DNA of 64,000 nt, from assembly GCA_039923495.1 (NCBI GenBank), contig JBDTCO010000064.1, positions 2-64,001 on the forward strand. Direction: 5' to 3'. The translations under genes were made by a program, and so were the position numbers. The notes below the pieces were generated by a model. That model did not search any database. It had not been told where the DNA came from and saw only the letters and a program-made list of their open reading frames with translations. Every line of letters begins with the position of its first letter. Position 1 is the stretch's first letter. Shown piece after piece: positions 32,290 through 52,695 of this stretch. Source of the DNA: Polyangia bacterium (GTDB lineage Bacteria > Myxococcota_A > Polyangia > Palsa-1104).

Positions 32290-32342
32290 CCAGAGCCGCG
32301 CGCGCTGGTAGTGGCCGTGGTCCTCGCGTAACATCTGCCGAC

Positions 32343-34259
32343 GTGGCGGGTTCAGGGGAGAAACCACCGGGTGCGAGCGCGTTCGACGCCACGTACGTGG
32401 CGGAACTCGATCCGGTGGCAATCGCCGACTCCGTCGAGGACGCGTCGTTCGTCGGTGGCATCATCGCGGAGCGTTACCGCGTCATCCGCGTGATCGGTCG
32501 CGGCGGGATGGGCACCGTCTACGAGTGTGAGCACGTCCAGCTACACAAGCGCGTCGCGCTGAAGGTCCTCGCGCACGCGGTCCGCAAGGACCCGGAGACC
32601 GCCTCGCGCTTTCTCACGGAGGCCCGAGCCGCGGCGCAGATCGGGCACCCGAACATCGTCGACATCTTCGATCTCGGCGAGCTCCCCACCGGTGGGACGT
32701 TCATCGCCATGGCGTTGCTCGACGGTCACGATCTCGACCGCGAGCTCAAGATCAGGGGCGCGATGCCGTTTCATCGCGCGCGCTCCATCGTCAGTCAGGT
32801 CTGCCGTGCCCTCGCTGCGGCCCACGCGCTCGGCATCGTGCACCGCGACATGAAGCCCGCGAACGTCTTCCTCGCGCGCGACGCGGACGGGATCGAGCAC
32901 GTGAAGGTGCTCGACTTCGGCATCGCACACGTGCAGGACGCGGACGCGGACGCAGTCGGGCTCACGCAGACGGGCACGATCCTCGGTACGCCGGCGTTCA
33001 TGTCGCCGGAGCAGGGGCGGGGTACCGGCCTCGACCATCGCACCGATATTTATTCGGTGGGCTGCATCCTCTACATGCTCCTCACGAACGAGATGGTGTT
33101 CCAGGGGCCGACGGCGATGGCCGTGATCGCCCGCCACATGGTGGAAGCGCCGGTGCCGCCATCGCAGCGCGTGCCCGAGACGCACATCCCGCCCGAACTC
33201 GACGCCGTCGTGCTGCGCGCGCTCGCGAAGGATCCGGCCGAGCGCTACCAGACGATGAAGGAGCTCTGGGGGGCGCTCGAGGGGTTGAACGCCGAACCGG
33301 AGAGCTGGAGCGAGGCGACGTCGGGACGCTTCGGATCGGTGCGGGATCTGGCGGAGATGGTGCCTCCAGAACAGGAGGCGCCGATCGTCATCGACACCGC
33401 CGCGCTGCCGCCTGTCTCCCGTCGTTCGTTCCCGCTCGCACTCGCAGCCGGCGGGGCGCTCGTCGCGTCCGCGCTCGGGCTCGGCCTCTGGTGGCAAACG
33501 CGTGCGCCGGTGCAGCCGCGCGTTGTGCACGTCCTCGAGCAGGTCGCGCTCGACGTGACCTCCAACCAGCCGGACGCGAAGGCGACGATCCGGGGTGTGA
33601 CGTATCCACTGCCGCTCCACACGCGACTGTCGCGTAGCGGTAACGCGGAGATGGTGGAGGTGTCAGCACCGTGCTGTGCACCGTCGAGATCGTGGACCAC
33701 GCTGGATCGCGACCGTGGCCTCGACGTCGCCCTTTCGCCCGTCGCGCCCGGGGTCGCACCGATCCCGCCGCTGCCGCTGCGTCATGGGACGCCGCATGGA
33801 ACGCGGCTCATCCCGGCAGCAAAAGAACCAACCGCTTCGGTCGTGCAGCCGCCCGTCGTGTCGGCACCGCCCGTGGTCGTAGCGGCGCCCTTCGTCCCGC
33901 AGCCGCTGCCGGTCGTCGCGCCGAAGCCGGTGGTCGCGCCGAAGCCGGTGGTCGCGCCGAAGCCGGTCGTCGCGCCGATGCCGCCGCTCGTCATCGCGTC
34001 GCAGCTGATGCAGCGCCTCGTGCACGCGCACCAGGCTGCCGTCGACTCGTGCATCGCGGAAGACCCGTCCGCGAGCGGCAAGCTCGGGTATCGCATGGTC
34101 ATCGCCGCGGACGGCAAAGTGGTTTCGGCTCAGCTGGTCGAGGCTGCCCGTCGGTATCCGTCCATCGAGTACTGTCTCGCGCACGCGCTGCCGCAGTGGA
34201 GCGTTGCGCCAGCGCCCGGGCGACGGGCCGAGGGCCGCGTCGTCATCGATCTAGACTGA
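32343..34259 (+). CDS. Ser/Thr protein kinase with TM segment, Pro-rich (PKPVVA)n linker and AgmX/PglI-like C-terminal domain
   Basis: Intact Hanks motifs (VALKVL, HRDMKPANV, DFG, SPE). GTG start inferred; an in-frame GTG slightly downstream is also possible. 18-bp x4 tandem repeat at ~33920-33995. Confidence 0.85.
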   Translation: MAGSGEKPPGASAFDATYVAELDPVAIADSVEDASFVGGIIAERYRVIRVIGRGGMGTVYECEHVQLHKRVALKVLAHAVRKDPETASRFLTEARAAAQIGHPNIVDIFDLGELPTGGTFIAMALLDGHDLDRELKIRGAMPFHRARSIVSQVCRALAAAHALGIVHRDMKPANVFLARDADGIEHVKVLDFGIAHVQDADADAVGLTQTGTILGTPAFMSPEQGRGTGLDHRTDIYSVGCILYMLLTNEMVFQGPTAMAVIARHMVEAPVPPSQRVPETHIPPELDAVVLRALAKDPAERYQTMKELWGALEGLNAEPESWSEATSGRFGSVRDLAEMVPPEQEAPIVIDTAALPPVSRRSFPLALAAGGALVASALGLGLWWQTRAPVQPRVVHVLEQVALDVTSNQPDAKATIRGVTYPLPLHTRLSRSGNAEMVEVSAPCCAPSRSWTTLDRDRGLDVALSPVAPGVAPIPPLPLRHGTPHGTRLIPAAKEPTASVVQPPVVSAPPVVVAAPFVPQPLPVVAPKPVVAPKPVVAPKPVVAPMPPLVIASQLMQRLVHAHQAAVDSCIAEDPSASGKLGYRMVIAADGKVVSAQLVEAARRYPSIEYCLAHALPQWSVAPAPGRRAEGRVVIDLD

Positions 34260-34262
34260 CGC

Positions 34263-36275
34263 TCAGCGCGTGGCGTAGCTCAGCCGCAGGTACACCTCGC
34301 GCGAAGCGAGCGGGTACGGCGCGTGGCCCCCGTCGTACGGCTGCGCGACGCGGTAGAGCTGGCCGAGCGCATTTCGCACGCCGGCGGTGAGCTCGAGCCC
34401 GCGGATGCCGAGGTTGCGGTAGGACAGGTTCGCGCCGAGCAGCACCGTGTTCGGCTCCGCAGCGGCGCGTTTCTCCCCGTCGGGTCCCGGCGCGAGCAGC
34501 TCGTAGCGCGGGCTGAGATAGACGACGGTGATGCCGGTGTGCACGTGGTCGCGCCACAGCATCGCGCCGATGGAGAGCGTGAGCTTGTGCGCGGGCGCCG
34601 CGAGCAAGAGGTCGCTGTGGCCGGGCACTGCGTACGTCGCGACATCGTTCTGGTTGGCCGCCGTGTAGAACGAGTAGCCGAGCGTGCCGGTCATCCACGC
34701 GTACCGCGTCTTGAGCTGCGCCTCGATGCCGCCGGTCCCCGTGTTCCCCGCGTTGGAGTAGCGCTCGACGAGCGTCGTGGCATCGCTGCCGAAGACGATC
34801 GCGCGCGTGATGCGGAGAAAGTACCCGTCGAGCGTGAATGCCCAGTGTCCCGAGAGCTGCACGCCGACCTCGGCCTCGGCGGTGTGGGTCCGCTCGGGCC
34901 GCAGCCCAGGGCTGATGCGCAGGTTCTCGAAGGCGGGACCGCGGAACGCGAGGCTGTAGAGGAGCTTGAAGTTGAAGCGGCCGACGACTCGCGTGAAGCC
35001 GACGCGCGGCACGACCGAGTTGCCGTACGCGGTGTTGTACTCGTAGCGGCCACCAACGGTGATGTTCGCCACCTTGTTGCGCCAGAACACCTGCGCATAT
35101 GCGGCCAGGTTGCCGTAGTCGACGCGCGGCGAGCTGCCGAAGAGCTGCTGGAAGCCGCTGAGCGTTGGGTCGTTGAGCTGCGCGTGGTCCCAGTAGCCCT
35201 CGAAGCCGAGGAGGATGTTCACGTCCTTTCGCGCGTCGATGCTGACGCCGATGCCACCGAGGAGACGAAGCGCGCTCTTGTCGTAAAAGGCGGAGCTCGT
35301 CTTGTCGAGCGTCTGCCACGGCGTCTGGTGCTTGAACGAGAAGCGCGGCAGCAGCGTGACCTTGTGGCCGACGTTCTTCTCGTAGCGGACATCTGCGTAG
35401 TAGCTGCGGAATCGCTGGTTCACCGGCGTGGGCAGCACGAGCCCGGCGCCATCCTGCGTCTGCATCACGTTGTCCTCGAACAGGAAGCGGGCGCTGAGGC
35501 CGCGATACGTGAGCGCGGTGTTGAGCAGGAACGTCTGCCTCTCCGACCCGCTACGGAGCGAGTACGAGGCGCCCTGGTCATCGTAATACGTGCGGTCGCT
35601 CTGGAGCCCCTTCAGGAACGCGACGTCCATCTTCACCGCCAGGCCGGGCACCTTCTTCAGCTCGGCGCCACCCGAGGCCGTGGCCATGAAGCGACCCCAG
35701 CCGTTCTCCATCTGACCGTAGTAGGTCGAAGCCGCGATGCCGTTGAGCTCCGCGGGTGCGCGCGTCGTGATCTTCACGACGGCCAGCTCGGCGTAGCCGC
35801 CGTAGATCGCCGAGCCCGGTCCGCGGATGACCTCGATGCGCTGGATGATCGACGCGGGCACGCGCATCCCGAGCGAGGTGGTCGAGTAGAGCGTCTCGTT
35901 GAGCTCGTGGCCATCGAGCAGGAAGAGCACCTTGCCTTCGTGTGCCCACTCGCCGCGAAAACTCACGCCGACGACGCCGCTGACGTCCACGCCCACCGAG
36001 AAGCCGGGCACGAGCTGCAGGAGGTCGAGCAGATCGCGCGCACCGGACGACACGATCTCCTCACGATCGAGCACCGAGACGATGCCGGGCGCGTCGCGCA
36101 TCGTGAGCGGCGTGTGTGAGGTGACACGCACCTCCTCGTTGGCCGGCTCGGGGAGCGGTTCGACGACGCCGACGACCTCTTCCGGCGGTACGATGGGCTG
36201 GAGGTCACCCGCGGGCTGCGCGAATGCAGACGCGCCACAGAACAGCGCGATGACGACGACCGGGAACCGGGTCAC
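34263..36275 (-). CDS. TonB-dependent outer-membrane receptor
   Basis: Signal peptide. Plug domain (DAPGIVSVLDREEI...RIEVIRGPGSAIYG). Long beta-barrel region. Confidence 0.85.
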   Translation of the reverse strand: MTRFPVVVIALFCGASAFAQPAGDLQPIVPPEEVVGVVEPLPEPANEEVRVTSHTPLTMRDAPGIVSVLDREEIVSSGARDLLDLLQLVPGFSVGVDVSGVVGVSFRGEWAHEGKVLFLLDGHELNETLYSTTSLGMRVPASIIQRIEVIRGPGSAIYGGYAELAVVKITTRAPAELNGIAASTYYGQMENGWGRFMATASGGAELKKVPGLAVKMDVAFLKGLQSDRTYYDDQGASYSLRSGSERQTFLLNTALTYRGLSARFLFEDNVMQTQDGAGLVLPTPVNQRFRSYYADVRYEKNVGHKVTLLPRFSFKHQTPWQTLDKTSSAFYDKSALRLLGGIGVSIDARKDVNILLGFEGYWDHAQLNDPTLSGFQQLFGSSPRVDYGNLAAYAQVFWRNKVANITVGGRYEYNTAYGNSVVPRVGFTRVVGRFNFKLLYSLAFRGPAFENLRISPGLRPERTHTAEAEVGVQLSGHWAFTLDGYFLRITRAIVFGSDATTLVERYSNAGNTGTGGIEAQLKTRYAWMTGTLGYSFYTAANQNDVATYAVPGHSDLLLAAPAHKLTLSIGAMLWRDHVHTGITVVYLSPRYELLAPGPDGEKRAAAEPNTVLLGANLSYRNLGIRGLELTAGVRNALGQLYRVAQPYDGGHAPYPLASREVYLRLSYATR

Positions 36276-39114
36276 CGCGAGAACAGCCTCTTCGAGAGCT
36301 TGCGGAGCTCGGCGTAGATGAACGGGAGGATCGACATGGCGAACACGAGGGCGACGTCACCGCCCGTCAGCGCCGAGGTCTTGAAGAGCGGGCGCAGCCC
36401 CGGTGTATAGATGGTCACGGCCTCGAGGACGACGCCGATGAGCGCCGCACCGATGAGCGCGCGGTTCGTGAAGAGGCCCTGCTCCACGAGCAGCGCGCGC
36501 TCCGAGCGACACGCGAACGAGTAGAAGAGGGGACCGACCGCGAGGATGGCGAACACCATGGCGCGAGCGTGCGCGAGCTCCTCCGCGGACGCAGCGTGGT
36601 GTGGGTCCTTCATCGAGCGCAGGAACACATAGATGGCGGTGGCGGCCATCACCGCACCCACGCCGATCATCTCGAGGTAGTCGTGCAGGCCAAGGATGGC
36701 GCCGCCCGGCTTGCGTGGCGGCTGCTGCATCTGGTTCTTCTCGCGAGGGTCGACGCCGAGCGCGAGGGCCGGTAGGCCGTTGGTGATGAGGTTGATCCAC
36801 AGGATCTGGATCGGTGCGAGCGGCGACTCCCAGCCGAGCAGCGCCGAGGCCAGCACGAAGAGCACCGCGCCGGTGTTCGACGACAGGAGAAAGATGATGA
36901 ACTTGCGGATGTTCGCGTAGATGGTGCGACCTTCTTCGACGGCCGCGATGATGGTCGCGTAGTTGTCATCCGACAGGACGAGCGCGGCGGCCTCCTTCGT
37001 GACATCGGTGCCCGTCTTGCCCATCGCGATCCCGATGGACGCGGCCTTCACGGCCGGTGCGTCGTTCACGCCGTCGCCGGTCATCGCGCACAGGATTCCG
37101 CGCGCCCGGAGCGCCATCACGATGCGCAGCTTGTGCTCGGCGGTGGCGCGCGCCACGACGCGCACGCGGTCGACCTGCTCCTCGACGCGCTGCTGGTCCA
37201 TGGCGTCGAGATCGTGGCCCGTGAGGATGAGGTCGCCTTCTTCCCACAGGCCGATCTCGATGGCGATCGCGCGCGCGGTGGCGGGATGATCACCCGTGAT
37301 CATCATCGTGCGGATGCCGGCCGCGCGCGCCTCGGCGATTGCGGGGATGACCTCGGGTCGCGGCGGATCGACGATGGCCACGAGGCCGACGAGGGTGAGG
37401 TGCTCCTCCCAGCTCGCGTTCGGCGTGCACGGGCCGATGGGCATGTCGAAGCCGTCGCGACGGGCGAGCGCGATGACGCGCATCGTCGCATCGGCCCACG
37501 TGCGAGCCTGTGCGAGCAGCGCTTCCTTGTGCGACTCGTCGAGGTCGACACGCTGGCCGTCGTGGAACGTGTGCGTCGTCCGTTCGAGGACGGCCTCGAG
37601 CGCGCCACGCACGTACGATCGCACGCTCGTGGCCTGCACCTGCACGAGGACCGAGGCCATGCGACGTTGCGATGTGAACGGCTGCTCACCGAGCACGTGA
37701 CCGTTCGCGTTGATTCCGGTGCGACGCGCGAAGATCAGCATCGCGGCGTCCGTCGCATCGCCCTGGACCTCGAAGGTGCCGTCGGCGCCATCGGACAGAT
37801 GCGCACCGCGCGCGAAGGCCGCGGCCTCGGCCAGGCGCCGCAGATCGTGGTCGCTGTCGTTCGCACAGCCGGGCTCGACGACGCGACCATCGGCCGTGGC
37901 GACCGATCCTTCGAGCTTGCGGGCCGCGCCGGTGACGATGTAGCGGATGCTGCCCGCCCACGTCTCGCGCACGGTCATCGCGTTCTGCGTGAGCGTGCCC
38001 GTCTTGTCGGTGCAGATGACCTGCACGGAGCCGAGGGTCTCGACGGCAGGTAGCCGCCGAACCAGCGCATTGCGCTTCGCCATGCGCTGCGTCCCCAGCG
38101 CGAGCACGATGGTGGTGACGGCGGGTAGACCCTCGGGGATCGCAGCGACGGCGAGCGCGACAGCAACGAGGAAGAGCTCGCGCGCCGTCTGGTGCGAGAG
38201 CGCCATGCCCGCGACGAAGACGAGCGCGGAGATGACGATGCAGCCGATGACGACGCGCTTGCCGAACGCGTCGAGCGCCTTCTCGAGCGGCGTCTTCTCC
38301 GGCTTGACGCGCGCGAGCATACCGGCGATGGCGCCGAGCTCGGTGTGCACACCGGTGTTGGCGACGATGCCGCGACCGCGACCGCGCGCGACCTTGGTGC
38401 CGAGGAAGAGCATCGTGCGACGCTCGGCCAGCGCAGTGCCGCGCTCGAGCTGCACCTCGGCTTCCTTGGAGACGGGGACGCTTTCGCCGGTGAGCGCGGC
38501 TTCTTCTACCTCGAGATCGTGACCGGAGATCAGGCGGACGTCGGCGCCGATGCGATCGCCGTCCTCGATGAGCACGATGTCGCCAGGCACGAGCTCGACG
38601 GCAGCGAGCTCGACGGGCTTGCCGTCGCGTAGCACGCGTGCCAGCGGAGCGACCATCTGGCGGAGCGCATCCATCGCCTTCTCGGCGCGCCTCTCCTGCA
38701 CGATCCCGAGCACGGCGTTGATCACGACGATGGCCAGGATCGCGATGGAGTCGCCGAACCGCTCGACGAACGTGGAGCCCGGTAGCGGTACGAACAGGCC
38801 GAGCCCACCGGCGATGGCCGCAGCCCCGAGCAGCGCGAGCACGGTGAAGTCGCTGACCTGCGCGACGAGCTTCTTCCACCACGGCTCGGGCGGCTCCTCG
38901 GGCAGCGAGTTCGGCCCGACGCGCTCGAGGCGCTCCTTGGCGGCTGCCGCCGTGAGGCCCAGCTTCAGATCCGACTGCCAGTAGTCGGCGACGGCCTGGG
39001 CGGGGACGTGGTGCCACGCGAGCCGAGGCGCGTTGCCATCGGGTGCGCTGGGCAGGCCACTTCGCGCTGCGGTCGGTGAGTCCGTTGGCTCGACGGTACC
39101 GGCGGCAGACATGG
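36272..39114 (-). CDS. Cation-transporting P-type ATPase (Ca2+/SERCA-PMCA-like, type II)
   Basis: [10 protein letters not shown] phosphorylation site. TGDHPATA and [15 protein letters not shown] motifs. 10 TM helices. GAAGGA RBS before the ATG at 39114. 4-nt overlap with the TBDR gene. Confidence 0.9.
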
Positions 39115-39186
39115 GATGTCCTTCTAACACGAACGTCGTCGTCGTTCTGCCTCCCTGGCAACGTCGCGTTTGGGCATAGTGCGGCC

Positions 39187-40050
39187 GTGATCTACGCGCA
39201 GGCGCGCAAGTTCGTGAAGCTGCTGGTCCAGGCAACCCTGCGCCACAACGTCGTCGATCTCGGGGCACAGCTCGCGTACTGGTCGCTGCTCGCGCTGTTC
39301 CCGTTCGTCATCTTCCTGCTCACGGTCATCGGCTACCTGCCGGTGCTGGGGCTCGACGAGCAGCTGATGACGTGGGTCGCGCCGTTCATGCCGCCGTCTG
39401 CGCTGACGCTCGTCTGGCAGACCGTGCACGAAATCGTGGGTCAGCAGCGCGGCGGTCTGCTCGCGATCTCGCTCATCGGTGCACTCTGGTCGGCGGCCGG
39501 CGGCGCGAGCGCGATGCAGGTCGCGCTCAACCGCGCCTACAACGTCCACGAGACGCGCCCGTACTGGCGGCGCAAGAGCGAGGCGATGGTGTTCACGCTC
39601 GGTGCCACCGTCCTGCTCGGAGTAGCAGTCGTTGGCGCCACCGTCGGGCCGGAGCTCGTGAGGCTGGTGCTCGACGTGTTCGGTGTGGCGTCGAGCTACG
39701 GCGGCTTCGAGCACGTCTGGGCCTGGGTCCGCTACCCACTTTCGCTGGGTGCGCTCGTCGGCTTGTTGCTGGCGACGTACACGTTCCTCCCTTCCGTCCG
39801 TCATGGCTGGGACCTCGGCTCATACGGCTCTGTCGCGGCCGTGCTGTCGTGGCTCCTCACCACGTGGCTGTTCCGCGAGTTCGTCGGGCTCTTCAACTCC
39901 TACGCCCGCAGCTACGGCGCGCTCGCGGCGGTCGTCATCCTCATGACGTGGATCTATCTCTCGGGGATCGCCTTCATCATGGGTGCCGAGGTCAACGCGG
40001 TGCTTGCGCGGATGCGCAACGAGAACCACGAGGGTGAGCCGTCGACGTGA
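39187..40050 (+). CDS. YihY/BrkB-family membrane protein
   Basis: 6 TM helices. LAYWSLLALFP and AAGGASAMQVALNRAY motifs. GTG start inferred. Confidence 0.7.
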   Translation: MIYAQARKFVKLLVQATLRHNVVDLGAQLAYWSLLALFPFVIFLLTVIGYLPVLGLDEQLMTWVAPFMPPSALTLVWQTVHEIVGQQRGGLLAISLIGALWSAAGGASAMQVALNRAYNVHETRPYWRRKSEAMVFTLGATVLLGVAVVGATVGPELVRLVLDVFGVASSYGGFEHVWAWVRYPLSLGALVGLLLATYTFLPSVRHGWDLGSYGSVAAVLSWLLTTWLFREFVGLFNSYARSYGALAAVVILMTWIYLSGIAFIMGAEVNAVLARMRNENHEGEPST

Positions 40051-40092
40051 CGGACCGTCTCGACGGTTGACCGATCGCAGCGTTGTGGCTAC

Positions 40093-40917
40093 ATGACGGA
40101 GATGGGCACCGCCCCCACGAAGATCGTCGTTCGCGTGATCCTGATCACCGCGTGCGCGCTCGTCTGCGTCGGCTGGCTCGGGACGATCGCAGCGATGGGG
40201 CAGGGTGGTCCTCGCACGAGCGCCGCAGTGGCGCTCGTGCTCCTGCTTTCGGCCGGCGCGTACCTCGCGTGGGTCTACCTGCCCGACGTCGATCTGCCCG
40301 GTCGCTCGCCCCGCCGTGGGCTGCCGTCCTCGGGCGCGCCGCGCGTCGCGCTCACCTTCGACGATGGTCCCAACGGCGCCGATACCGCGGCCATCCTCGA
40401 CGCGCTCCGCGAGCACGGCGCTCGTGCCACGTTCTTCGTCGTCGGTGAAGCCGTGCGCCAGTACCCCGAGCTCGTGCGCCGCATGGCCGACGAGGGTCAT
40501 GTCGTCGGGAGCCACACCGATGCGCACCGCAAGCTCGCGTGGCTATCGGCAGCCGACGTCGCGCGGGAGCTCGACGGCGCGCGCGAGGCCATCGTGTCCG
40601 CAGGCGCACCCGAGCCGCGCTGGTTTCGTGCGCCGCACGGCTTCAAGTCGCCGTTCCTGCCGTCGGCGCTCGCGCAGCGCGACCTGCGCCTCGTCGCCTG
40701 GAGCCACGGCGTGTGGGACACCGATCGTCCCGGCGTCGAGGTCATCGCCCAGCGCGCGATCGGCTGCCTGGACGACGGTGAGATCCTCCTCCTGCACGAT
40801 GGCACCCTCGGCGCCGATCGCACCCAGACCGCAGCAGCGCTTCGTCGCATCCTGACCGTTGCTCGTGACCGTGGCGTGTCGCTCGTCACCGTTCCCGAGA
40901 TCATGAATGCCGGCTGA
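40093..40917 (+). CDS. Polysaccharide deacetylase (CE4/NodB homology), membrane-anchored
   Basis: N-terminal TM anchor. VALTFDDGP, HTDAH and LLLHD CE4 motifs. Confidence 0.85.
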   Translation: MTEMGTAPTKIVVRVILITACALVCVGWLGTIAAMGQGGPRTSAAVALVLLLSAGAYLAWVYLPDVDLPGRSPRRGLPSSGAPRVALTFDDGPNGADTAAILDALREHGARATFFVVGEAVRQYPELVRRMADEGHVVGSHTDAHRKLAWLSAADVARELDGAREAIVSAGAPEPRWFRAPHGFKSPFLPSALAQRDLRLVAWSHGVWDTDRPGVEVIAQRAIGCLDDGEILLLHDGTLGADRTQTAAALRRILTVARDRGVSLVTVPEIMNAG

Positions 40918-41857
40918 GCGTCGGTCGAGGCTGCGCCTCGCGCTGCAGGTGCTGTCGGCCGCGGTGCTCATCGGCCTCGCCGCGCTGCTCTTCGAGAACG
41001 TGCAGTGGCGCGAGTTCGGCGCCGCCCTCGCTCGCGCGTCGTGGCCGCTCGTCCTCGCCGCGGCGGCGCTCAACTTCGTCAACCTCGCGTGCAAGACGGC
41101 GCGGTGGCGCGTGTTGCTCGGTGGGCGCGTCGCGTACTGGCGGCTCTACCACTACCTCGTGACGTCGTACGCGGCCTCAGCGGTCCTGCCCGCGCGTGCC
41201 GGCGAGGCGCTGCGGGTGGTGCTCCTGCGTCGTCGCGACGGCCTCCCGCTCTCCGATGCGGTCGGCCCGCTCGTCGTCGAGAAGCTCTTCGAGGTGCTCG
41301 GGCTGCTCGTGATCGTGCTGCCCCTGCCGTTCGTCATGCCGCTGCCGCACTGGGCGCGCCTGTCCATCGAGGTCATCGCTGTCGGTGGATTGTCGTCGCT
41401 CGTCGTCGCGGTCGTGCTCGCGCGCGTGCTGGGGCGGGCCGAGAGCTCGAGGTGGCACGCGCTCGCGAGCGGGCTCTCGTCGATGCGCTCGCCGATGCCA
41501 ATCGCGCTCGCGGCGCTGTACAGCGTGCTCGCGTACGCGGTCGACGCTGCGATGGTGTGGCTCGTGCTGCGCGCGCTGTCGATCCACGTGCCGTGGGCCA
41601 CGCCTGCGCTCGTGCTCCTGGGCGGCAACCTCGCCATCGCGGTGCCGTCGACGCCCGGGCAGCTTGGTGCGCTCGAGGCCGGCATCATCGCCGGCCTGTC
41701 CGTCGTCGGCGTTCCGCTCTCGGACGCGCTCGCGTTCGGGCTCGTCTATCACCTCATGCAGCTCCTCCCGGTCGTGCTCGTGGGCGCGACCGGGCTCCGC
41801 CTCGTCGCCGACGTCAAGGACGAGCTTGCAACACCCGCAGAGGCCTCTTCCCGATGA
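40907..41857 (+). CDS. UPF0104/flippase-like membrane protein (lysyl-PG-synthase TM-domain family, TIGR00374-like)
   Basis: 8 TM helices. Overlaps the CE4 gene by 11 nt. Confidence 0.7.
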   Translation: MPAERRSRLRLALQVLSAAVLIGLAALLFENVQWREFGAALARASWPLVLAAAALNFVNLACKTARWRVLLGGRVAYWRLYHYLVTSYAASAVLPARAGEALRVVLLRRRDGLPLSDAVGPLVVEKLFEVLGLLVIVLPLPFVMPLPHWARLSIEVIAVGGLSSLVVAVVLARVLGRAESSRWHALASGLSSMRSPMPIALAALYSVLAYAVDAAMVWLVLRALSIHVPWATPALVLLGGNLAIAVPSTPGQLGALEAGIIAGLSVVGVPLSDALAFGLVYHLMQLLPVVLVGATGLRLVADVKDELATPAEASSR

Positions 41858-44349
41858 AGAACACCGACTCGCTCCGTCCTCCCGCGCCGTGGATCGTTCG
41901 CTACGCGCGCTTTCTGCACGCGCGCACCACCGCGGTGATCCTGATCTGCCTCGCGCTGACCGGTATCGCGGTCGGGCTCTCGTCGCGGCTGACCATCTCC
42001 ACCGAGTGGTATGCCGTGCTGCCGCGTGGCTATCCGTCCGTCGAGGACCTCCACAAGCTCATGGCCCGCATCGGTTCGACGGCCTCGCTCACCGTCGGCG
42101 TCGAGTCCCCGGATCGTGAAGCGAACCAGAAGTTCGCCGATGCCTTCGTCGTCGCGCTGCAGAAGGAGATGGGCCCGCAGATCGCGAACGTCGACTACAA
42201 GGTCGATGCGCTCACGCGCTTTTATCGCAAGCACGCCGCGGTGTACCTGCCCGAGAAGGACCTCCTCGCCATCGACGAGGACCTGAAGGCCGGCATCACC
42301 GAGAAGAAGCTCGCGGCCTCACCCGTCCCGTACGACCTCGACCTCGATGACGAGCCGCCCGCGGCCGCGAAGAAGGGCGGGCTCGGCGACATCACCAGGC
42401 GGCTCGACGAGGCGCAGGGCGACCTGAAGCGCTTCGTGAACGGCTACTACGCGTCTCCGGACGGCAAGCTCATCGCAATCTTCATCCGGCCGCGTGCATC
42501 GGGTGCCGATGCGAAGGTCGCGCGCGCCTTCGTCGAGCACGTGCGGCAGGTCGGCGAGAGCCTCCATCCGGCGTCGTTCAACCCCGCGATGAAGTTCTCG
42601 TTCACCGGTGCCTACTACGTCGGGCTCGACGAGCAGGACGCCGTGAAGCGTGATCTCGTGTCGACGGCTGGCCTGTGCATCGGGCTCATCGGCGTTGCGG
42701 TCACCATCTACTTCCGGCGCATCCGCGTCATCGCGCTCCTCGGCGCCACGCTCGTCTGCGGCTGCGCGTGGGCATTCGGGCTCGCCGCCGTCGCGGTCGG
42801 CTACCTCAACATCCAGACGGCGTTCCTTGGATCGATCATCATGGGGACCGGCATCAACTACGGCGTCATCCTCCTCGCGCGCTACCTCGAGGAGCGACGC
42901 CGCGGTGCCGAGCCGGAGGACTCGCTCGCCCGCGCGCTCGGTGGCACGTGGCTCGCCACGCTCACGGCCGCGGGTACGACGGCGGTCTCGTTCGGCACGC
43001 TCCTCATCGCGCAGATCTCGTCGTTCCGTCACTTCGCGATCATCGGTGGCGGCGGCATCCTGTTCTGCTGGCTGCTATCGTTCACGCTGCTGCCCGCGCT
43101 GCTCGTCATGTCGGAGCGCCTCTCGCCGACCGTGCGCCACACCGGTGGCGGCGCGCACTGGCCGAGCTTCCTCGTGGAGCTACCGCTCAAGTTTCCGCGG
43201 ACGGTGCTCGTGATCGCACTCGCGTTCTCGGCGGTCTCGGTCGTGGTGTTCGTGCGCTTCCTGCCGGACGCGCTCGAGACCGACAGCCGCAACCTGCGCA
43301 ACAAGGAGCACGGCGAGACGAGCACTGCGCGTCTCGACAAACGTGTAGCCGATATTCGTAAGCAATCGATGACGCCGGCGTTCGTCGTCACCGACAGCCT
43401 CGAGGAGGCCAAGGAGGTCTGCGCGAAGATGGACGACTGGGTCGCGCGCGAAGGCGAGGCCAAGGCGCCCATCAAGACCTGCAGATCCATCTATTCGATG
43501 CTGCCGAAGGACGCCGCGAAGAAGCTCGTCATCGCGCACCGGATCGCCGATCGCATCGACGCGCTACCGGTCGATGCGCTCTCACCCGAGGACAGGAAGA
43601 CTGTCGATGAGCTGCGCTCCGAGATCGTCTTCGAGGACGTGCAGCTCAAGGATCTGCCCGAGGAGCTCGTGCGGCCGTTCCGCGAGGTCTCGGGCGAGGT
43701 GGGCCGCCTCGTCGCCATCTACCCACCCAACGGTCGCGATCTCGCCGTGCAGGAGTACCTCTTCGCCTTCACCGACGCGATCCGTCGGATCGACCTCGGT
43801 CACGGTCGGGTCGTCACTTCGTCGGGGGACGCGGTCATCTTCTCCGACATCCTTCGCATGATCACGCACGATGCACCGCGCACCACCGCGCTCGCGTTCG
43901 TGTGCGTGATCCTCTTCGTGTTCCTCGCGCTACGAGGGGGCCGTTCGACCGCACACGTGACCGGCGCGCTCGTCATCGGCGTGCTGTGGATGGTCGGCAT
44001 CGCCTCGATGGACAAGGTGAAGATCAACTTCTTCAACTTCGTCGCGCTGCCCACCACCTTTGGCATCGCGGTCGACTACACCATCAACCTCTACACCCGC
44101 TTCCACGACGCGAAGGTGAGCGACGACGCAGAGGGCAGGCTCTCGCGTCTGCGCATCGCGCTCCGCGAGACCGGCGGCGCCATCTTCCTGTGCTCGGTCA
44201 CCACCATCATCGGCTATGGGACGCTCATCATCGCCGACAACCGCGCGCTCGTGTCCTTCGGCAAGCTCGCGATCCTCGGCGAGGTCACCTGCGTGATCGC
44301 GGCGCTCATCCTTTTGCCCGCGACGCTGCTCCTCGACAAGAAATCCTAG
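41854..44349 (+). CDS. MMPL/RND-superfamily membrane exporter (second copy)
   Basis: ATGA overlap with the upstream gene. 831 aa. Two TM bundles plus two periplasmic domains. Confidence 0.85.
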   Translation: MKNTDSLRPPAPWIVRYARFLHARTTAVILICLALTGIAVGLSSRLTISTEWYAVLPRGYPSVEDLHKLMARIGSTASLTVGVESPDREANQKFADAFVVALQKEMGPQIANVDYKVDALTRFYRKHAAVYLPEKDLLAIDEDLKAGITEKKLAASPVPYDLDLDDEPPAAAKKGGLGDITRRLDEAQGDLKRFVNGYYASPDGKLIAIFIRPRASGADAKVARAFVEHVRQVGESLHPASFNPAMKFSFTGAYYVGLDEQDAVKRDLVSTAGLCIGLIGVAVTIYFRRIRVIALLGATLVCGCAWAFGLAAVAVGYLNIQTAFLGSIIMGTGINYGVILLARYLEERRRGAEPEDSLARALGGTWLATLTAAGTTAVSFGTLLIAQISSFRHFAIIGGGGILFCWLLSFTLLPALLVMSERLSPTVRHTGGGAHWPSFLVELPLKFPRTVLVIALAFSAVSVVVFVRFLPDALETDSRNLRNKEHGETSTARLDKRVADIRKQSMTPAFVVTDSLEEAKEVCAKMDDWVAREGEAKAPIKTCRSIYSMLPKDAAKKLVIAHRIADRIDALPVDALSPEDRKTVDELRSEIVFEDVQLKDLPEELVRPFREVSGEVGRLVAIYPPNGRDLAVQEYLFAFTDAIRRIDLGHGRVVTSSGDAVIFSDILRMITHDAPRTTALAFVCVILFVFLALRGGRSTAHVTGALVIGVLWMVGIASMDKVKINFFNFVALPTTFGIAVDYTINLYTRFHDAKVSDDAEGRLSRLRIALRETGGAIFLCSVTTIIGYGTLIIADNRALVSFGKLAILGEVTCVIAALILLPATLLLDKKS

Positions 44350-44479
44350 CGGCGACGGCGGCGCAGGTCGTCGAGCGCTGCGTTCACCGCGATGCGCGCG
44401 GATGGCGCGACGAGCGGGATGCCCGCGCCGGGAGGAACGCTGCCGACGCCGCGTAGAGCTCAGATGACGACCGCCGGCT

Positions 44480-46261
44480 TCAAGGGCAGTGCACGGGGCG
44501 CGGCATCGGCACGTCGACGCGACGACGGACGAGGTCGAAGAGGCCGGGCTCGCTCGGGAGCAGGACCCCTCCATGGGCGTGCAGCGCCTCCTCGAGGACC
44601 GCGCGTACCGTGCCGAGCGTGAGCGATGGCGTCGCGGGCCGGACGAGCATCCCGTCGCCACCGCTCGCGAGGAAGTCGACGGTGCCGATGCGATAGTGGG
44701 CTGCGCGGTCGATGGGCTTGCCGTTCGTGAGCGTCAGTGTCGTCTTTTCGTGACCGGCCTCGCACACGCAGACGACGTGTAGCCCCGAGTACGAGAGCGC
44801 GCCGAAGGGGCTCGCGAGGTTGTGCTCGGCGAGCGCGTACAGCTCGGCACCGGTGAGGTCGATGGCGATGACGACGTTGTCGAACGGGAACGTCTCGTAC
44901 AGCGCGCCGTACGTCAGCGGGCCGACGGGGAGCGAGGCGCGGATGCCGCCCGCGTTCATGATGCCGACGTCGGCCTTCGTGGCGCGACGCAGCGCATCCG
45001 CGAAGAAGTTCCCGAGCGGGCTCTCGCTCGAGTACTCGGTGGGAAGACCGACGGGCAGCGTGACGCCGACGGGTCGATCGGCGAGCGCGTGCGCGCGAGC
45101 GAGATCCGCGGCGATCGCCGCGGTCACGGCAGCGTCCGGCGACACGAGCCCGAAGTACGAGGCCTGGTGCGCCGTCGCGTCGTCGGGCGGCGCGCAGCGC
45201 TCGTGATCGTCGTAGCGGGCGCACACCTCGATGGAGCGCTCGATCTCGAAGCGACCCGTCGGCGTTGCGCTCTTTCCGTGGCCGCTCACATGCAACGTGA
45301 CGTGCGAGAGGTAGTGCCCGTTCTGACCGGACTGGATGACCGGGATGCCGTCGATGATCATCGTGTTTGGCTGGTGCGTGTGGCCGGCGACGATCGCCGA
45401 GACGCGGATGCCGCCCTTGCGTGCCTCGGTGGCGAACGCGTGCGCGAGCACCTCGATCTCGGAGTCGCGCGTGCAGTGGTCGAGGGCATCGTGGTCGCGA
45501 TCGGTGAGCGCGCGCTGCGAGCGATCGCACTCCGCGCCGGCGTGCACGGTCACGACGATGACGCGGGCACCATGGGCGCGGGCTTGCCGCGCCGCGGCGA
45601 GGAGCGCGGGTGCCAGCGGGCCCACGACGAGCCCCTCGAGGTTCGCGCGGATCGTCGTCTCGAAGAGGCTCTCGCTGGTGCCGCCGACGATGCCGACCGG
45701 GATGCCGTCGACGTTCCTGATGATGTACGTGGGGAACGGGTGCGTGCCATCGGCGAGCGTGATGTTGGCGCCGAGCAGCGGGAAGGTCGCTTCCTTCATC
45801 CGTGACTTCAGCGCGCCGCGCGGATCTTCGCCCGCGGCCGTGGGCGTGGGCGCGGGACCGGCGGGGCCGTAGTCGAACTCGTGGTTGCCGACCGCCGCGG
45901 CTGCATAGCCGAGCTGGTCGAGGCCGCGCAGCATCGACGCACCCTCGGTCTGGTTGGACGCGAGCGTGCCCTGGAACAGATCGCCGCCGTCGACGAGGAG
46001 CACGCGGCCGGGGTAGTGCGCACGTGCGTTCGCGAGGAAGCCGCCGAGCAGCGCGAGCCCGCCACCGAGGATCGGGTGCGCGGGATCTGCGCTCACGCCG
46101 TGCCGCCACAGGGATGGCTCGAGGTGCCCATGGATGTCGGTGGTGGCGTAGAGCTCGATCGACTTGTCGGCCGCCCGATCAGCAACGCGATCGGCGGCCC
46201 GCGCGGCAGGCAGGCCGAGCACGCAAGCGAGAGCGAACGAAGTCACGGCCGCGCGACGCAT
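44480..46261 (-). CDS. Secreted bifunctional metallophosphatase/5'-nucleotidase (UshA-like)
   Basis: Real protein starts at MRRAAVTSF... (residue 338 of track ORF 44480..47272). DIHGH, GNHEFD and GHTH metallophosphoesterase motifs plus a 5'-NT C-domain. Confidence 0.85.
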   Translation of the reverse strand: MRRAAVTSFALACVLGLPAARAADRVADRAADKSIELYATTDIHGHLEPSLWRHGVSADPAHPILGGGLALLGGFLANARAHYPGRVLLVDGGDLFQGTLASNQTEGASMLRGLDQLGYAAAAVGNHEFDYGPAGPAPTPTAAGEDPRGALKSRMKEATFPLLGANITLADGTHPFPTYIIRNVDGIPVGIVGGTSESLFETTIRANLEGLVVGPLAPALLAAARQARAHGARVIVVTVHAGAECDRSQRALTDRDHDALDHCTRDSEIEVLAHAFATEARKGGIRVSAIVAGHTHQPNTMIIDGIPVIQSGQNGHYLSHVTLHVSGHGKSATPTGRFEIERSIEVCARYDDHERCAPPDDATAHQASYFGLVSPDAAVTAAIAADLARAHALADRPVGVTLPVGLPTEYSSESPLGNFFADALRRATKADVGIMNAGGIRASLPVGPLTYGALYETFPFDNVVIAIDLTGAELYALAEHNLASPFGALSYSGLHVVCVCEAGHEKTTLTLTNGKPIDRAAHYRIGTVDFLASGGDGMLVRPATPSLTLGTVRAVLEEALHAHGGVLLPSEPGLFDLVRRRVDVPMPRPVHCP

Positions 46262-46303: not shown

Positions 46304-47716
46304 GTGAACGCCCGGAAGCAGAGCTCTTCGCGTGCACGCCGCAGCACAGCCGATCCCGTCACGGTGGTCGCCGAGGTGCGGCGCGCCGTCTCGCTCGCGC
46401 TCGGGGAGGGTGGGCTCCGTCCGTCGAACGGTCACGTGCTGCTCGCGCTGTCCGGCGGTCCCGACTCGCGCGTGCTCCTCGACGTGCTCGTCGCGCTGAA
46501 GGAGGAGCACCAGCTCGCGCTCGACGTGTGTGTCGTCGATCATGGCCTCCGCAATGGCTCTGCGCGCGAGGCGCAGGGCGCGCTCGAGGTCGCGCATCAC
46601 CTCGGCGTCGCGGGCACGGTGGAGCGCGTGAACCTCGTCGACAAGTCGCCGCGTGGCGCGCGCGATGCCCGCTACGGGGCGCTCGCTCGCGCGGCCGTCG
46701 CGTGCGGCGCCGAGGCCATCGTGCTCGGCCACACCGCATCGGATCAGGCAGAGACCCTCATCGACCACCTGCTCCGCGGTGCGGGCTCGCGCGGGCTGGG
46801 TGCGATGGCGCCCAGGCGCATGCTCGGCGCGCTGGCCGACGCGGGCGTGGCGACGGAGCACCTCTGCCTCGTGCGTCCGCTGCTCGAGGTCACGCGCGCG
46901 GAGGTCGAGGCATACGTCGAGCACGAGGGTCTCGGGGTGGTCCGCGATCCCACCAACGAGGACCTGCGCTACCGCCGCAGTCGCATCCGCCAGCGCGTGC
47001 TCCCGTTGCTGCGCGCAGAGCGCCCCGATCTCGATCGCGCGCTCGTGCGCCTGTCCGAGCGCCTGCGCCTCGACGCGGAGTACCTCGACGGCGAGGCCGC
47101 GCGAGCGAGGGCCACTTTCACCGTGCCCGGCGGTCTCGTCGACCTCGAGGGCATGAGCGGCCTGCACCTCGCGCTCCAGGCACGCATCCTCCGCGAGATG
47201 TGCGAGGAGGTCGGCGTGCCCGGTGATCGCGTACCGCTCGATGCGCTGCTGCGCCTGTGTCGCGGGCGCCACGGCACCTCGCAGATCGATCTACCGCAGG
47301 GGCAGGTCGCGGAGCGCCGCTACAGCCGGCTGCGAATCGGTGAGCCACACCTCGTGCAGCCTGCACCGGACGAGGTGCCGGTGCGCGCCGCCGGGACGTA
47401 CGAGCTCGGCGCGCTCATCGTGCGCGTGCCGAAGAAGCTGCTGTCGTCCGGCGCCACGCTCGTGTTCCGCAGGCCGCGCGCGGGCGACCGGGTGGACAAG
47501 GGCAAGCTCTCCGATCTGCTGGTGGACAAGAAGGTCGCGCGGCCGGAGCGCGGGCGATTGTGGGCGCTGGCCGAGCAATCGGGCGCCGGGATCCCGGGCA
47601 GGGTCCGCTGGGTGGGCCTCGCGGCCGAGGGACCCGGGGCTGGCGGACTGGCCTGGGAATGGCCATCTTCGGGGCTACGGCCACGTGCCATCCGAGGGCG
47701 TCGCGCAGGGGAGTAG
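46304..47716 (+). CDS. tilS: tRNA(Ile)-lysidine synthetase
   Basis: SGGPDS PP-loop motif. Substrate-binding and C-terminal domains present. Confidence 0.85.
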
Positions 47717-47808
47717 CGCGCGTTGACGCGTGTAGAATCCATGCGATAACTTGCAGTTCGCGCAGCCGTGCTCACTTCAGCGGCCGCGCAAGATCGAGAG
47801 AGGTTCCG

Positions 47809-49740
<1,932 letters not shown>

Positions 49741-49792
49741 CGCCGTTCTCCTCGCCCGGTGCGGCGGTCGCCTCATCGGTGGACCGCTGTGC

Positions 49793-50563
49793 ATGGGGAT
49801 CCTCAACCTCACGCCCGACTCGTTCTCCGATGGCGGTCGTGGTCCGGATGCGAGCATCGCGCTCGCTCGCTCGTGGGGCAGCAACGTCGATATCGTCGAC
49901 GTCGGCGGCGAGTCGACGCGACCGCACGCGACGCCGGTCTCGCTCGAAGAGGAGCTCGCGCGGGTACTTCCGGTCGTCCGTGCGCTCGCTCCCCAGCTCA
50001 CGATCAGCATCGACACGTACAAGGCCGAGGTCGCCGCACAGACCATCGCTGCGGGTGCCGAGATCATCAACGACGTCTCGGGTGGCCTCATGGATCCGGC
50101 GCTCCTGGACGTCGTCGCGAGTACTGGCGCGTACGTGATCCTCGGTCACACGCGCGGCACGTCGGCCACGATGAACGACCTCGCCGATTATCGTGACGTG
50201 GTGGCCGAGGTGCGCGACGAGCTCGGCGCGCGCGTCGCGGCCGCGGGTGCGGCGGGGGTCGCTCCAGAACGAATCTTCGTCGATCCGGGCCTCGGCTTCG
50301 CGAAGCGCGCCGAGCACAACCTCACGCTGCTCGCACATCTCCACGAGCTCCGCACGCTGGGCTTTCCAATCGTGGTGGGACTCTCGCGCAAGCGCTTCCT
50401 CGCCGAGGTCGGCGGCATCTGGGCGATGGACGACCGCGAAGAGGCGACGGCTGCTGCGGGTGCGATCGCGGTGTGGAACGGCGCGGACGTGATCCGTGTT
50501 CACGACGTGACGAGACAGGCGCGATCGCTGCGCGTGGCAGGCGCGATCGTACGAAGCGGCTAG
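49793..50563 (+). CDS. folP: Dihydropteroate synthase
   Basis: MGILNLTPDSFSDGG...DVGGESTRP pterin-binding signature. Confidence 0.85.
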   Translation: MGILNLTPDSFSDGGRGPDASIALARSWGSNVDIVDVGGESTRPHATPVSLEEELARVLPVVRALAPQLTISIDTYKAEVAAQTIAAGAEIINDVSGGLMDPALLDVVASTGAYVILGHTRGTSATMNDLADYRDVVAEVRDELGARVAAAGAAGVAPERIFVDPGLGFAKRAEHNLTLLAHLHELRTLGFPIVVGLSRKRFLAEVGGIWAMDDREEATAAAGAIAVWNGADVIRVHDVTRQARSLRVAGAIVRSG

Positions 50564-50772
50564 GATCCGCCACACCGACCCGGCCGTGCCGGTGCACGTG
50601 GTGAGACGGTGTCGTCGATGGCCCAGCAGAGCATTGCGCCGACGGGCTGGATGACGCTCGAGCTGCAGCTGGACGGTTTCGCGGTGGGCTCGAACGTGTG
50701 ATCGGACGCTGGAACGAGCGCCAGGACCGCTTTGTCAGGCCGCGCGGACCTCCTCGGGGCTACCATGAGCCC

Positions 50773-51759: not shown

Positions 51760-52694
51760 TGCGCGCCGCGGTCTGGCGGGCGCTGACCCACGACATCCCG
51801 CTCAAGCTCGCCGCGCTGGTCATCGCCATCGCGCTGTTCGTCGTCGTGCGCAGCGACAAGGACTCGGCGACTGGTGTGTTCGTGCGCGTCATCTACACGC
51901 TGCCGACCGATCGCGTGCTCGTCTCGGACCCGGTGTCGGAGGTGAAGCTCGCGATCCGCGGCCCGTGGACCAAGATCCAGAAGCTCGACGAGCGCGAGCT
52001 CGAGCCCATCCGCATCGATCTGTCGCGCACGAAGGAGTCGGTGCTCCACTTCTCGGAGAGCATGGTCAGCCTGCCCGCCGGTCTGCGCGTCGTGTCGATG
52101 GTGCCGACCCAGACCAAGCTCGACTTCGAGCCGCGCGCCGAGCGAGACGTCCCCGTGCAGCCGCTCCTCGAAGGGCAGCCGCGCGACGGCTTTCGCGTCG
52201 CTTCGATCACGGTGGAGCCGGATCACGTGCGCATCGCCGGCCCGAAGCGGGTCATCGCTCACATCGAGCGGGTGACGACGAGGCCGTTCCGCATCGAGGA
52301 CGCCACCGGCGCCGTGCGCGATAGCATCTCGCTCGAGGCGCCGCCGCGCACCGTGCAGTACCTGAACGCGGGCTCGGTCACGGTCACTGCCGACGTTCGG
52401 CCCGCCATCGTCGAGCGCTCGCTGGACGGCGTGAAGATCGGGGTCGCGGGGCTGACGCACCTCGATGCCGACGTCGACCCGAAGGTGGCGCAGGTCATCC
52501 TGCGCGGTCCGTTCGATCTCGTGCGGCGCGTGTCGCCCACCTCTATTCAGCTCGTGCTCGATGCTCGGCTCGAGGACGGTCGGCCGCCCGCGCTCTACAA
52601 GAAGCGCATCGACGTGACGGGGCTCCCATCGGGTGTCGCCGCCGAGGTCAGGCCGGATACCGCGCTGCTTTCTACGCGGCACCACCGGGAGTAG
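51759..52694 (+). CDS. cdaR: CdaR (YbbR-domain regulator of CdaA)
   Basis: ATGA overlap with cdaA. N-terminal TM helix. Repeated YbbR-like beta domains. Confidence 0.75.
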
Positions 52695-52695
52695 G

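Follow-up and report, generated by a model that had tools for sequence, protein, structure and literature searches.

A CE4 deacetylase and UPF0104 protein linked to an HpnN-like RND transporter in a Polyangia bacterium: candidate steps of an amino-sugar lipid pathway

Introduction

What could keep the genes for a YihY/BrkB-family protein, a polysaccharide deacetylase, a UPF0104 membrane protein and an RND transporter side by side? The question is raised by positions 39187-44349 of a 64,000-nucleotide stretch of DNA from a Polyangia bacterium (GenBank assembly GCA_039923495.1, contig JBDTCO010000064.1); this whole stretch is hereafter called the window. The initial annotation of the locus read the four genes as a candidate system for the modification and export of a lipid or glycolipid. 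In diderm bacteria, the way by which specialised lipids get from the inner membrane to the outer one has, to our knowledge, been worked out for few classes, namely lipopolysaccharide (LPS), lipoproteins, hopanoids, sterols and mycolates.

Here, we analysed the cluster and its relatives computationally. The evidence leans slightly towards the view that two steps of a synthase-deacetylase-flippase (S-D-F) pathway for an amino-sugar lipid, those of the deacetylase (D) and the flippase (F), are encoded by the cluster and coupled to a dedicated HpnN-type RND exporter.

Results

Four closely spaced genes on one strand

Genes were called by third-position GC frame analysis together with a listing of open reading frames (ORFs) in the window, the GC content of which is 69%. 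The starts of yihY and of the divergent Ca-ATPase gene were refined by N-terminal alignment with homologues from four related loci (L001, L003, L083 and L084). The cluster consists of four plus-strand genes at 39187-44349, in the order yihY, CE4, UPF0104 and RND. The first two are separated by a gap of 42 nt, CE4 and UPF0104 overlap by 11 nt, and UPF0104 and RND overlap by the 4 nt ATGA. The frame and ORF analyses thus confirmed the tight, same-strand arrangement described in the initial annotation, and its four family assignments were all upheld by Pfam, above the curated cut-offs. From these overlaps, the four genes are presumed to be co-transcribed.

The deacetylase and its fusion to UPF0104

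The second gene (40093-40917, plus strand) encodes D, a membrane-anchored de-N-acetylase of the CE4/NodB type with 274 amino acids (Pfam Polysacc_deac_1, 1.2e-32); the NCBI record puts its start at 40102 (protein P0121, 271 amino acids). Its score against PF01522 was 112.9 bits (cut-off, 23.1), and the four NodB motifs are intact, being TFDDG at 85, HTDAH at 138, RAPHG at 176 and LLH at 230 in the numbering of P0121. These motifs align with those of the peptidoglycan N-acetylglucosamine (GlcNAc) deacetylase 5o6y. Peptidoglycan GlcNAc deacetylases and chitin/xylan esterases were the closest solved structures, and the NCBIfam matches (NodB, PdaB and PgdA) were all below their cut-offs.

The N-terminus of the protein forms a hairpin of two transmembrane (TM) helices, residues 11-29 and 45-63, which is conserved across all lineages examined. 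Among 75 CE4 homologues, the mean number of Lys plus Arg residues was 1.7 at the N-terminus, 1.0 in the loop between the helices and 4.8 in the segment after the second helix. From this positive-inside charge bias around the hairpin, a heuristic based on hydropathy and charge, the catalytic domain was predicted to be located in the cytoplasm.

In two separate lineages, CE4 and UPF0104 are fused as one ORF (L004, 8109-9842, 577 amino acids; L025, 7001-8815, 604 amino acids), with both domains above the Pfam cut-offs. In the fusions, the CE4 domain lies 15-20 residues ahead of the first TM helix of UPF0104. Owing to these two fusions, all-against-all clustering of the ORFs from 21 loci lumped CE4 and UPF0104 into a single family. 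Both fusions came from fetched loci; among 97 UPF0104 homologue matches in the protein database, no fusion to CE4 or to a glycosyltransferase was found. MprF has 14 TM helices and a cytosolic C-terminal synthase domain, and on this architecture the N-terminus of UPF0104, where the fusion junction lies, would be cytoplasmic. One CE4 homologue of 58% identity (L085) adjoins a gene of the alpha-amylase family and has no UPF0104 gene nearby; therefore, not every CE4 match at this level of identity belongs to the module.

The UPF0104 protein

The third gene (40907-41857, plus strand) encodes F, a membrane protein of 316 amino acids that resembles the flippase domain of MprF (Pfam LPG_synthase_TM, 1.1e-45). 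It carries this domain alone, without an aminoacyl-synthase domain. The score against TIGR00374 ('flippase-like domain') was 80.3 (cut-off, 43.2), and the MprF model matched residues 15-288 at 1.4e-8. Sequence searches of the PDB gave no match, either with the single sequence or with a 32-sequence profile. When an AlphaFold2 model (pLDDT 93) was used for a fold search against the PDB, six MprF structures were the sole significant matches, with a probability of 1.00 and, when normalised to the query, a TM-score of about 0.6. HpnL was among the NCBIfam matches (1e-9; 38 bits, cut-off 196), and JGI labels several relatives as 'glycosyltransferase 2 family protein'. The modelled fold predicts that UPF0104 is a flippase for the modified lipid.

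The RND transporter

The fourth gene (41854-44349, plus strand) encodes an HpnN/HAE3-like RND transporter of 831 amino acids with an MMPL domain (Pfam MMPL, 1.7e-34). The NCBIfam E-values were 2e-63 for HpnN, 1.2e-58 for BstA and 5e-43 for HAE3, all beneath the equivalog cut-offs. The protein falls outside HpnN proper (TIGR03480, 214.7 against 751.85; NF052374, 104.3 against 1100), outside BstA (NF045600, 198.8 bits against 1400) and outside the mycobacterial MmpLs (TIGR00833, 119.6 bits against 874.7), to which it is tied only by the generic Pfam domain. When a profile of 25 RND sequences was compared with the PDB, HpnN (5khn) was the best match at 4e-49, and MmpL4 (5e-23) and MmpL5 ranked below it. 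By these comparisons the transporter is closest to the HpnN/HAE3 branch, not to the mycobacterial MmpLs; the term 'MMPL exporter' in the initial annotation is accurate as to the domain and misleading as to the branch. No cyclase or hpn gene, such as would indicate a shc/hpn association, was found in scans of the window. By analogy with characterised relatives, the predicted task of the transporter is to take the flipped lipid out of the inner membrane and pass it on in the direction of the outer one.

A second MMPL/RND gene is present elsewhere in the window (5122-7635, minus strand; 837 amino acids; Pfam MMPL, 2e-17) and shares about 27% identity with that of the cluster. It is divergent from a double-GNAT gene (7590-9335, plus strand) with FemAB-like Acetyltransf_6 and Acetyltransf_1 domains. 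The two could be another pair for the synthesis and export of a lipid or aminoacyl-lipid.

Linkage of the genes across related loci

Related loci were collected by contig look-ups of RND homologues and, for 80 of them, from a scan of GTDB species genomes; after a tblastn screen, 83 were non-redundant. A gene within 9 kb of the RND homologue was counted as linked. UPF0104 was linked at 17 of the 83 loci and CE4 at 14; both were present, and adjacent to each other, at 12. A family 4 glycosyltransferase (GT4) gene was found at 19 loci (15 with orthologue-level E-values), a PAP2_3-type gene at 17, Wzi-like and inositol-1-phosphate synthase genes at 11 each, and yihY at four.

The S-D-F trio or the D-F pair recurs beside RND homologues of 33-88% identity, at a GC content of 33-70% and in at least five gene orders. 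The order yihY-CE4-UPF0104-RND is kept in L003 (RND identity, 88%), L001 (67%) and L083 (60%). As in the window, UPF0104 and RND share an ATGA overlap in L001 and L083, and in L083 all three junctions are 4-nt overlaps. On the P0013 contig (56%), a divergent GT4 gene is followed by CE4-UPF0104-RND. In L004 (42%), GT4, the CE4-UPF0104 fusion and RND lie on a single strand, and the order in L007 (40%) is GT4-PAP2-GT4-CE4-UPF0104-PAP2-RND. L002 (37%) has GT4-CE4-UPF0104 on one strand and PAP2-RND-Wzi on the opposite one. Further orders and orientations occur at RND identities of 33-37% (L002, L014, L024, L025, L035 and L036). The RND transporters linked to S, D and F come from Myxococcota and Bdellovibrionota-like genomes, and in the RND tree their loci gather in few clades, that of the window among them.

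These comparisons support the conclusion that the linkage of CE4, UPF0104 and RND exceeds chance and simple synteny, and a functional coupling of D and F is highly probable. Conservation of the neighbourhood in related genomes had been set beforehand as a check on the proposed cluster. CE4-UPF0104-RND passed it, and yihY was conserved within its own clade only.

At 9-11 loci, the RND gene is directly followed by a gene for a Wzi-like (Caps_assemb_Wzi) barrel. Such a gene was seen at P0033, L002 (10537-12198), L010, L019, L023, L024, L026, L028 and L032. In protein P0031, RND and Wzi are fused (1350 amino acids; MMPL, residues 1-830; Wzi, 949-1324). Topologically, it is odd for an inner-membrane transporter to be joined to a barrel of the outer membrane, and the fusion may be an artefact of gene calling. 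At L019, L026 and L027 (and L074), GT4 and UPF0104 lie beside RND without CE4; these look like 'S-F-RND' variants that would export a non-deacetylated glycolipid. Just downstream of RND in L083 (12448-15265, minus strand) are genes for an amine-oxidase/desaturase-like flavoprotein and a protein of the 3-beta-hydroxysteroid dehydrogenase (3-beta-HSD)/epimerase family. Both families are also known from triterpenoid and sugar-nucleotide metabolism, and the two genes are not conserved in the window.

The synthase and the acceptor lipid

Outside the clade of the window, CE4-UPF0104 is accompanied by a GT4 glycosyltransferase, the presumptive S (L002, L004, L007, L014, L024, L025, L035, L036, L086 and the P0013 contig). 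No counterpart was found when the 64 kb of the window were searched by tblastn with the GT4, PAP2, Wzi-like and inositol-1-phosphate synthase sequences of a relative. The best matches of the relatives' GT4 were to generic GT4 families (BshA, MSMEG_0565, stp2, EpsE and Mgs), all below the cut-offs. A search for signatures of GpgS, PIG-A, MshA or BshA gave only non-specific matches below threshold; donor and acceptor are not readable from the sequence.

Neither the window nor the related loci examined contained a processive family 2 glycosyltransferase (GT2) synthase. The initial annotation had proposed deacetylation of a GlcNAc-bearing lipid or polymer. The lipid is favoured by the precedents of HexSDF and GpgSDF (see Discussion) and by the predicted cytoplasmic orientation of CE4, and the lack of a processive GT2 speaks against the polymer.

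Some distant loci point to inositol lipids. The PAP2_3 protein of L002 matched the model of the Bacteroides phosphoinositol-dihydroceramide synthase (AUR1-like) at 7e-16, a distant relationship far under the cut-off, and many RND homologues have an inositol-1-phosphate synthase gene only a few kb away. Ceramide phosphoinositol has been reported from Myxococcus xanthus. In eight loci from metagenome-assembled genomes (MAGs) of Oligoflexia/Bdellovibrionota (L045, L060, L065, L067, L069, L075, L077 and L079), a myo-inositol-1-phosphate synthase gene lies 0.1-4 kb from the RND homologue; these loci have no GT4, CE4 or UPF0104 nearby, and a weak PAP2 match is frequent. This pattern suggests that the RND family is more broadly tied to inositol-lipid metabolism. 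A glucosaminyl (GlcN)-inositol-phospholipid or GlcN-inositol-phosphoceramide is conceivable in the lineages with PAP2 and the inositol synthase. For the window itself the idea was discarded as unsupported, since PAP2_3 and inositol-1-phosphate synthase occur in distant loci only and the tblastn search was negative.

yihY and the divergent Ca-ATPase gene

The first gene of the cluster (39187-40050, plus strand) encodes an inner-membrane protein of the YihY/BrkB family with 287 amino acids (Pfam Virul_fac_BrkB, 1.1e-57). Its GTG start was backed by N-terminal alignment with homologues, and its scores were well above the cut-offs of PF03631 (196 bits; cut-off, 33.7) and TIGR00765 (118.2; cut-off, 73.15). 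A PDB search gave no match. No established function of YihY/BrkB proteins was found in the literature, where only a retracted paper on YhjD and a structural-homology preprint turned up; the latter, from 2026, proposes that YihY is structurally akin to CysZ and the mitochondrial ADP/ATP carrier.

yihY lies upstream of CE4 solely in the window, L003, L001 and L083, in the last of which it overlaps CE4. The loci with yihY near RND all belong to the clade of the window and all show Ca-ATPase synteny; the gene was found neither in L084 nor in the remaining loci of the 83-locus screen. Because the four yihY loci share this synteny, their linkage is no evidence beyond common descent. The initial annotation had treated yihY as an operon partner, which is borne out by its position next to CE4 in this clade; its rarity and its absence from L084 do not support a wider link. 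For the other three genes, the functional reading of that annotation was broadly right. The gene yihY is most simply seen as a passenger or accessory of this clade, probably no more, and its participation in the system is doubtful.

Like the window, the other members of the clade (L001, L003, L083 and L084) all carry a P-type Ca-ATPase gene divergent from the cluster, even L084, which lacks yihY and RND. The common upstream region is 40-150 bp long. Shared regulation of the Ca-ATPase gene and the cluster is possible.

Boundaries of the cluster and other genes in the window

In the window, the gene of this PMR1/SERCA-like Ca-ATPase (36272-39112, minus strand) has its likely ATG at 39112. The divergent intergenic region between this start and yihY (39113..39186, no strand, 74 bp) is the sole candidate promoter region for the four genes. 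Scanning of 38700-44700 revealed no terminator-like site within the cluster, with low power at 69% GC, and no sigma-70 consensus, which is uninformative for a myxobacterium of this GC content. Directly downstream, a convergent 5'-nucleotidase-like gene ends at 44480. A plus-strand housekeeping block follows about 3 kb downstream (47560-54075), comprising ftsH, folP (pterin-binding), cdaA (DAC), ybbR and glmM (phosphoglucosamine mutase). GlmM supplies UDP-GlcNAc synthesis, but the ftsH-to-glmM block is a widespread arrangement and its proximity to the cluster is probably coincidental.

Elsewhere in the window, a membrane O-acyltransferase gene of the Acyl_transf_3 family (18375-19538, minus strand) lies beside a 6-phosphogluconate-dehydrogenase-like gene. 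Near it are fatty-acid beta-oxidation genes for an enoyl-CoA hydratase and two acyl-CoA dehydrogenases (20667-25046). Four genes encode Ser/Thr protein kinases (9346-11190, 31653-34259, 60517-62466 and 63000-63929), one of which carries a PEGA domain. The window further encodes FHA-domain and GGDEF/GAF proteins; together with the kinases, they are typical of myxobacterial genomes.

Discussion

A putative pathway and its weak points

By summarising the above results, we propose a pathway model for the cluster and its relatives. A GT4 glycosyltransferase, unlinked in the window, would attach an N-acetylhexosamine (HexNAc) to a membrane lipid at the cytoplasmic face; the sugar is probably GlcNAc, with UDP-GlcNAc as its donor. 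The hairpin-anchored CE4 would then strip the acetyl group on the same face, yielding a cationic or zwitterionic hexosamine (HexN)-lipid, which UPF0104, with its MprF flippase fold, would move to the periplasmic leaflet. Finally, RND, driven by the proton motive force, would pull the HexN-lipid out of the inner membrane and send it on toward the outer one; this last step is modelled on the analogy with HpnN for hopanoids and BstA for sterols. In relatives, the Wzi-like barrel may serve as the outer-membrane partner. We infer the class of substrate, the cytoplasmic site of deacetylation and the direction and destination of transport from domain, fusion and linkage data. An amino-sugar lipid is a probable substrate, and the chances that RND acts on the same lipid as D and F appear evenly balanced.

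A wider reading can be offered tentatively: S-D-F plus an HpnN-type RND, often with a Wzi-like barrel and an AUR1-like PAP2_3, may be an undescribed, self-contained pathway that makes a cationic glycolipid and takes it to the outer membrane of Myxococcota and Bdellovibrionota-like bacteria. Candidates for this lipid are a GlcN-inositol-phospholipid resembling glycosylphosphatidylinositol (GPI) and a GlcN-inositol-phosphoceramide. The window would then hold a reduced variant, with yihY recruited and the synthase unlinked.

Several observations weigh against the model of a D-F pair coupled to its own exporter. Pfam detected no glycosyltransferase of any family among the approximately 46 ORFs of the window, and none was found within 8-10 kb in the clade loci L001, L083 and L084; the system as encoded in the window is therefore incomplete. 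The GT4 of the relatives scored 43-62 bits against the GpgS model NF053787, the cut-off of which is 480, and is not a GpgS orthologue. The topology of CE4 was obtained with the heuristic described above and not with a trained predictor, and all linked loci come from uncultured MAGs. In addition, L084 (CE4, 62% identical) has only the divergent Ca-ATPase gene and CE4-UPF0104, with neither yihY nor RND nearby, and L086 (52%) has a plain GT4-CE4-UPF0104 operon without RND, so that the D-F pair can do without RND. S, D and F genes are all missing from the vicinity of about 60 of the 83 RND homologues.

Alternative explanations

The last two observations, D-F pairs without RND and the majority of RND homologues without D-F, would be expected if CE4 and UPF0104 cooperated alone, in the manner of HexDF or GpgDF, and RND and yihY were independent neighbours placed in one operon by chance in some lineages. 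RND would then export another lipid, for example an inositol-phosphoceramide made by PAP2_3. The many Oligoflexia/Bdellovibrionota RNDs that adjoin inositol-1-phosphate synthase and PAP2 genes without S, D or F, and the restriction of the yihY linkage to one clade, agree with such an arrangement. However, the ATGA overlap of UPF0104 and RND recurs in three loci, single same-strand blocks of S, D, F, PAP2 and RND are frequent (as in L007 and L004), and linkage of RND to S, D or F that survives so many gene orders and so wide a GC range would hardly be expected unless co-inheritance were selected for. We thus regard independent neighbours as rather unlikely. An extracytoplasmic role for CE4 would separate the genes further, the enzyme being a conventional deacetylase of peptidoglycan or exopolysaccharide within a mixed set of envelope genes. 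Its nearest structures and its sub-cut-off NodB, PdaB and PgdA matches are of this kind, but the even-numbered TM hairpin and positive-inside bias indicate a cytoplasmic domain, two lineages have the enzyme joined to the N-terminus of UPF0104, a polysaccharide synthase is missing, and the adjacency to UPF0104 is kept in 12 loci. This explanation is very improbable.

Two other explanations retain the cytoplasmic deacetylase and change the lipid. If CE4 deacetylated undecaprenyl phosphate (Und-P)-HexNAc, much as ArnD deformylates Und-P-Ara4FN, and UPF0104 flipped the product, the amino sugar could be passed to lipid A, LPS or another surface glycan. ArnD, LgmABC of Bordetella and NaxD of Francisella use similar logic, and the GT2 names that JGI gives to UPF0104 relatives hint at GT2 associations. 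Nevertheless, neither an ArnC-like GT2 nor an ArnT-like GT-C was found in scans of the window or among the recurrent families of 21 related loci, the linked enzyme belongs to GT4, as soluble or peripheral enzymes with lipid or small-molecule acceptors typically do, and such a pathway leaves no role for an RND lipid exporter; we consider it improbable. Slightly more improbable still is a glycosylated triterpenoid (hopanoid or sterol), made by a route like that of HpnI, HpnK, HpnL and HpnN with CE4 replacing the YdjC-type HpnK and RND being a functional equivalent of HpnN or BstA. The HpnN, BstA and HpnL matches, HpnN as the best PDB relative of RND, the conversion of GlcNAc-bacteriohopanetetrol (BHT) to GlcN-BHT in hopanoid biosynthesis and the two genes downstream of RND in L083 favour such a product. 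Yet the scores are far under the equivalog cut-offs (215 against 752, 199 against 1400 and 38 against 196), squalene/oxidosqualene cyclase, hpnH, hpnI and hpnJ are absent from the window and from the recurrent neighbours, and the linked glycosyltransferase is a GT4 and not a GT2 like HpnI. We therefore retain the S-D-F pathway with an HpnN-type exporter as the working model.

Significance

S-D-F combined with an HpnN-like RND, and with a Wzi-like barrel in relatives, is a testable candidate for the delivery of amino-sugar lipids to the outer membrane, a step that has not been assigned. The model also suggests a role for HpnL in hopanoid loci, where it would flip glucosaminyl-BHT before HpnN acts. 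Resistance to cationic antimicrobials is altered by cationic lipids at the surface, and the pathway may therefore bear on the envelope defence of predatory and soil bacteria. The finding overturns no concept and extends a young one, that of S-D-F.

Comparison with known systems

In ArnD-ArnE/F and Bordetella LgmABC, a lipid-linked sugar loses its N-acyl group to a CE4-fold enzyme at the cytoplasmic face before a dedicated flippase takes over. The model shares with them this deacylation and the subsequent outward flipping of a cationic product. They differ in using an undecaprenyl phosphate carrier, a GT2 synthase, a heterodimeric flippase of the EamA/SMR type and a GT-C transferase, none of which was found here.

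The lipid-extracting end of the model resembles BstA-BstB-BstC and HpnN, in which an RND of the HAE3/HpnN type draws a specialised lipid out of the inner membrane so that it can be delivered to the outer one. In our case, the substrate is a presumed glycolipid, and the window has no gene for a periplasmic or outer-membrane partner. The hopanoid genes hpnI (GlcNAc-BHT synthase), hpnK (deacetylase), hpnL (UPF0104-like, of unknown function) and hpnN (RND) offer a non-orthologous parallel of the same four-part logic, and HpnN and HpnL are the nearest named families to the RND and UPF0104 proteins of the window. In contrast, HpnI is a GT2 and HpnK a YdjC-type enzyme where our loci have GT4 and CE4, no hopanoid biosynthesis genes lie near the cluster, and all scores were under the equivalog cut-offs.

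The closest published counterparts are the two S-D-F operons. HexSDF of Clostridioides difficile, which unites a synthase with a polysaccharide deacetylase and a flippase like MprF, produces hexosamine-hexose-diradylglycerol via an acetylated intermediate (Pannullo et al. 2023, PMC10128005). As in the window, a D of the polysaccharide-deacetylase family and an MprF-like, flippase-only F are encoded together. On the other hand, HexS resembles MGDG synthase and MurG whereas the relatives of the window have GT4, the host is monoderm and so has no outer-membrane export or RND, HexD was drawn as extracellular by the authors whereas our CE4 is predicted to be cytoplasmic, and the window has no S gene. 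GpgSDF of Pseudomonas aeruginosa consists of a synthase of family GT4, a deacetylase of COG3233 and a UPF0104 protein; with GlcNAc-PG as the intermediate, it turns phosphatidylglycerol (PG) into GlcN-PG (Khan, Palmer & Guan 2025, PMC12713373). Its authors proposed that deacetylation is cytosolic and precedes flipping, and stated that the onward route to the outer membrane is unknown (PMC12713373). The diderm host, the GT4 synthase shared with the relatives of the window, the deacetylase and the UPF0104 flippase make this operon similar to our loci. It differs in that GpgD is a soluble COG3233-type protein whereas our CE4 is TM-anchored, and gpgSDF has no RND, PAP2, Wzi or yihY partner; given the low GpgS scores of the relatives' GT4, the acceptor need not be PG.

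Set against these operons, the window has a D that adjoins F and an F with the flippase domain only, and lacks a linked S; its D belongs to CE4, as annotated for HexD, and not to COG3233 as GpgD does. The initial annotation did not recognise the combination as a described system. S-D-F operons had in fact been published, so that this statement holds for the RND linkage and the yihY variant. Relative to S-D-F as known, the linkage to an HpnN-like RND, the TM-anchored CE4, the D-F fusions and the synthase-less arrangement with yihY appear to be new.

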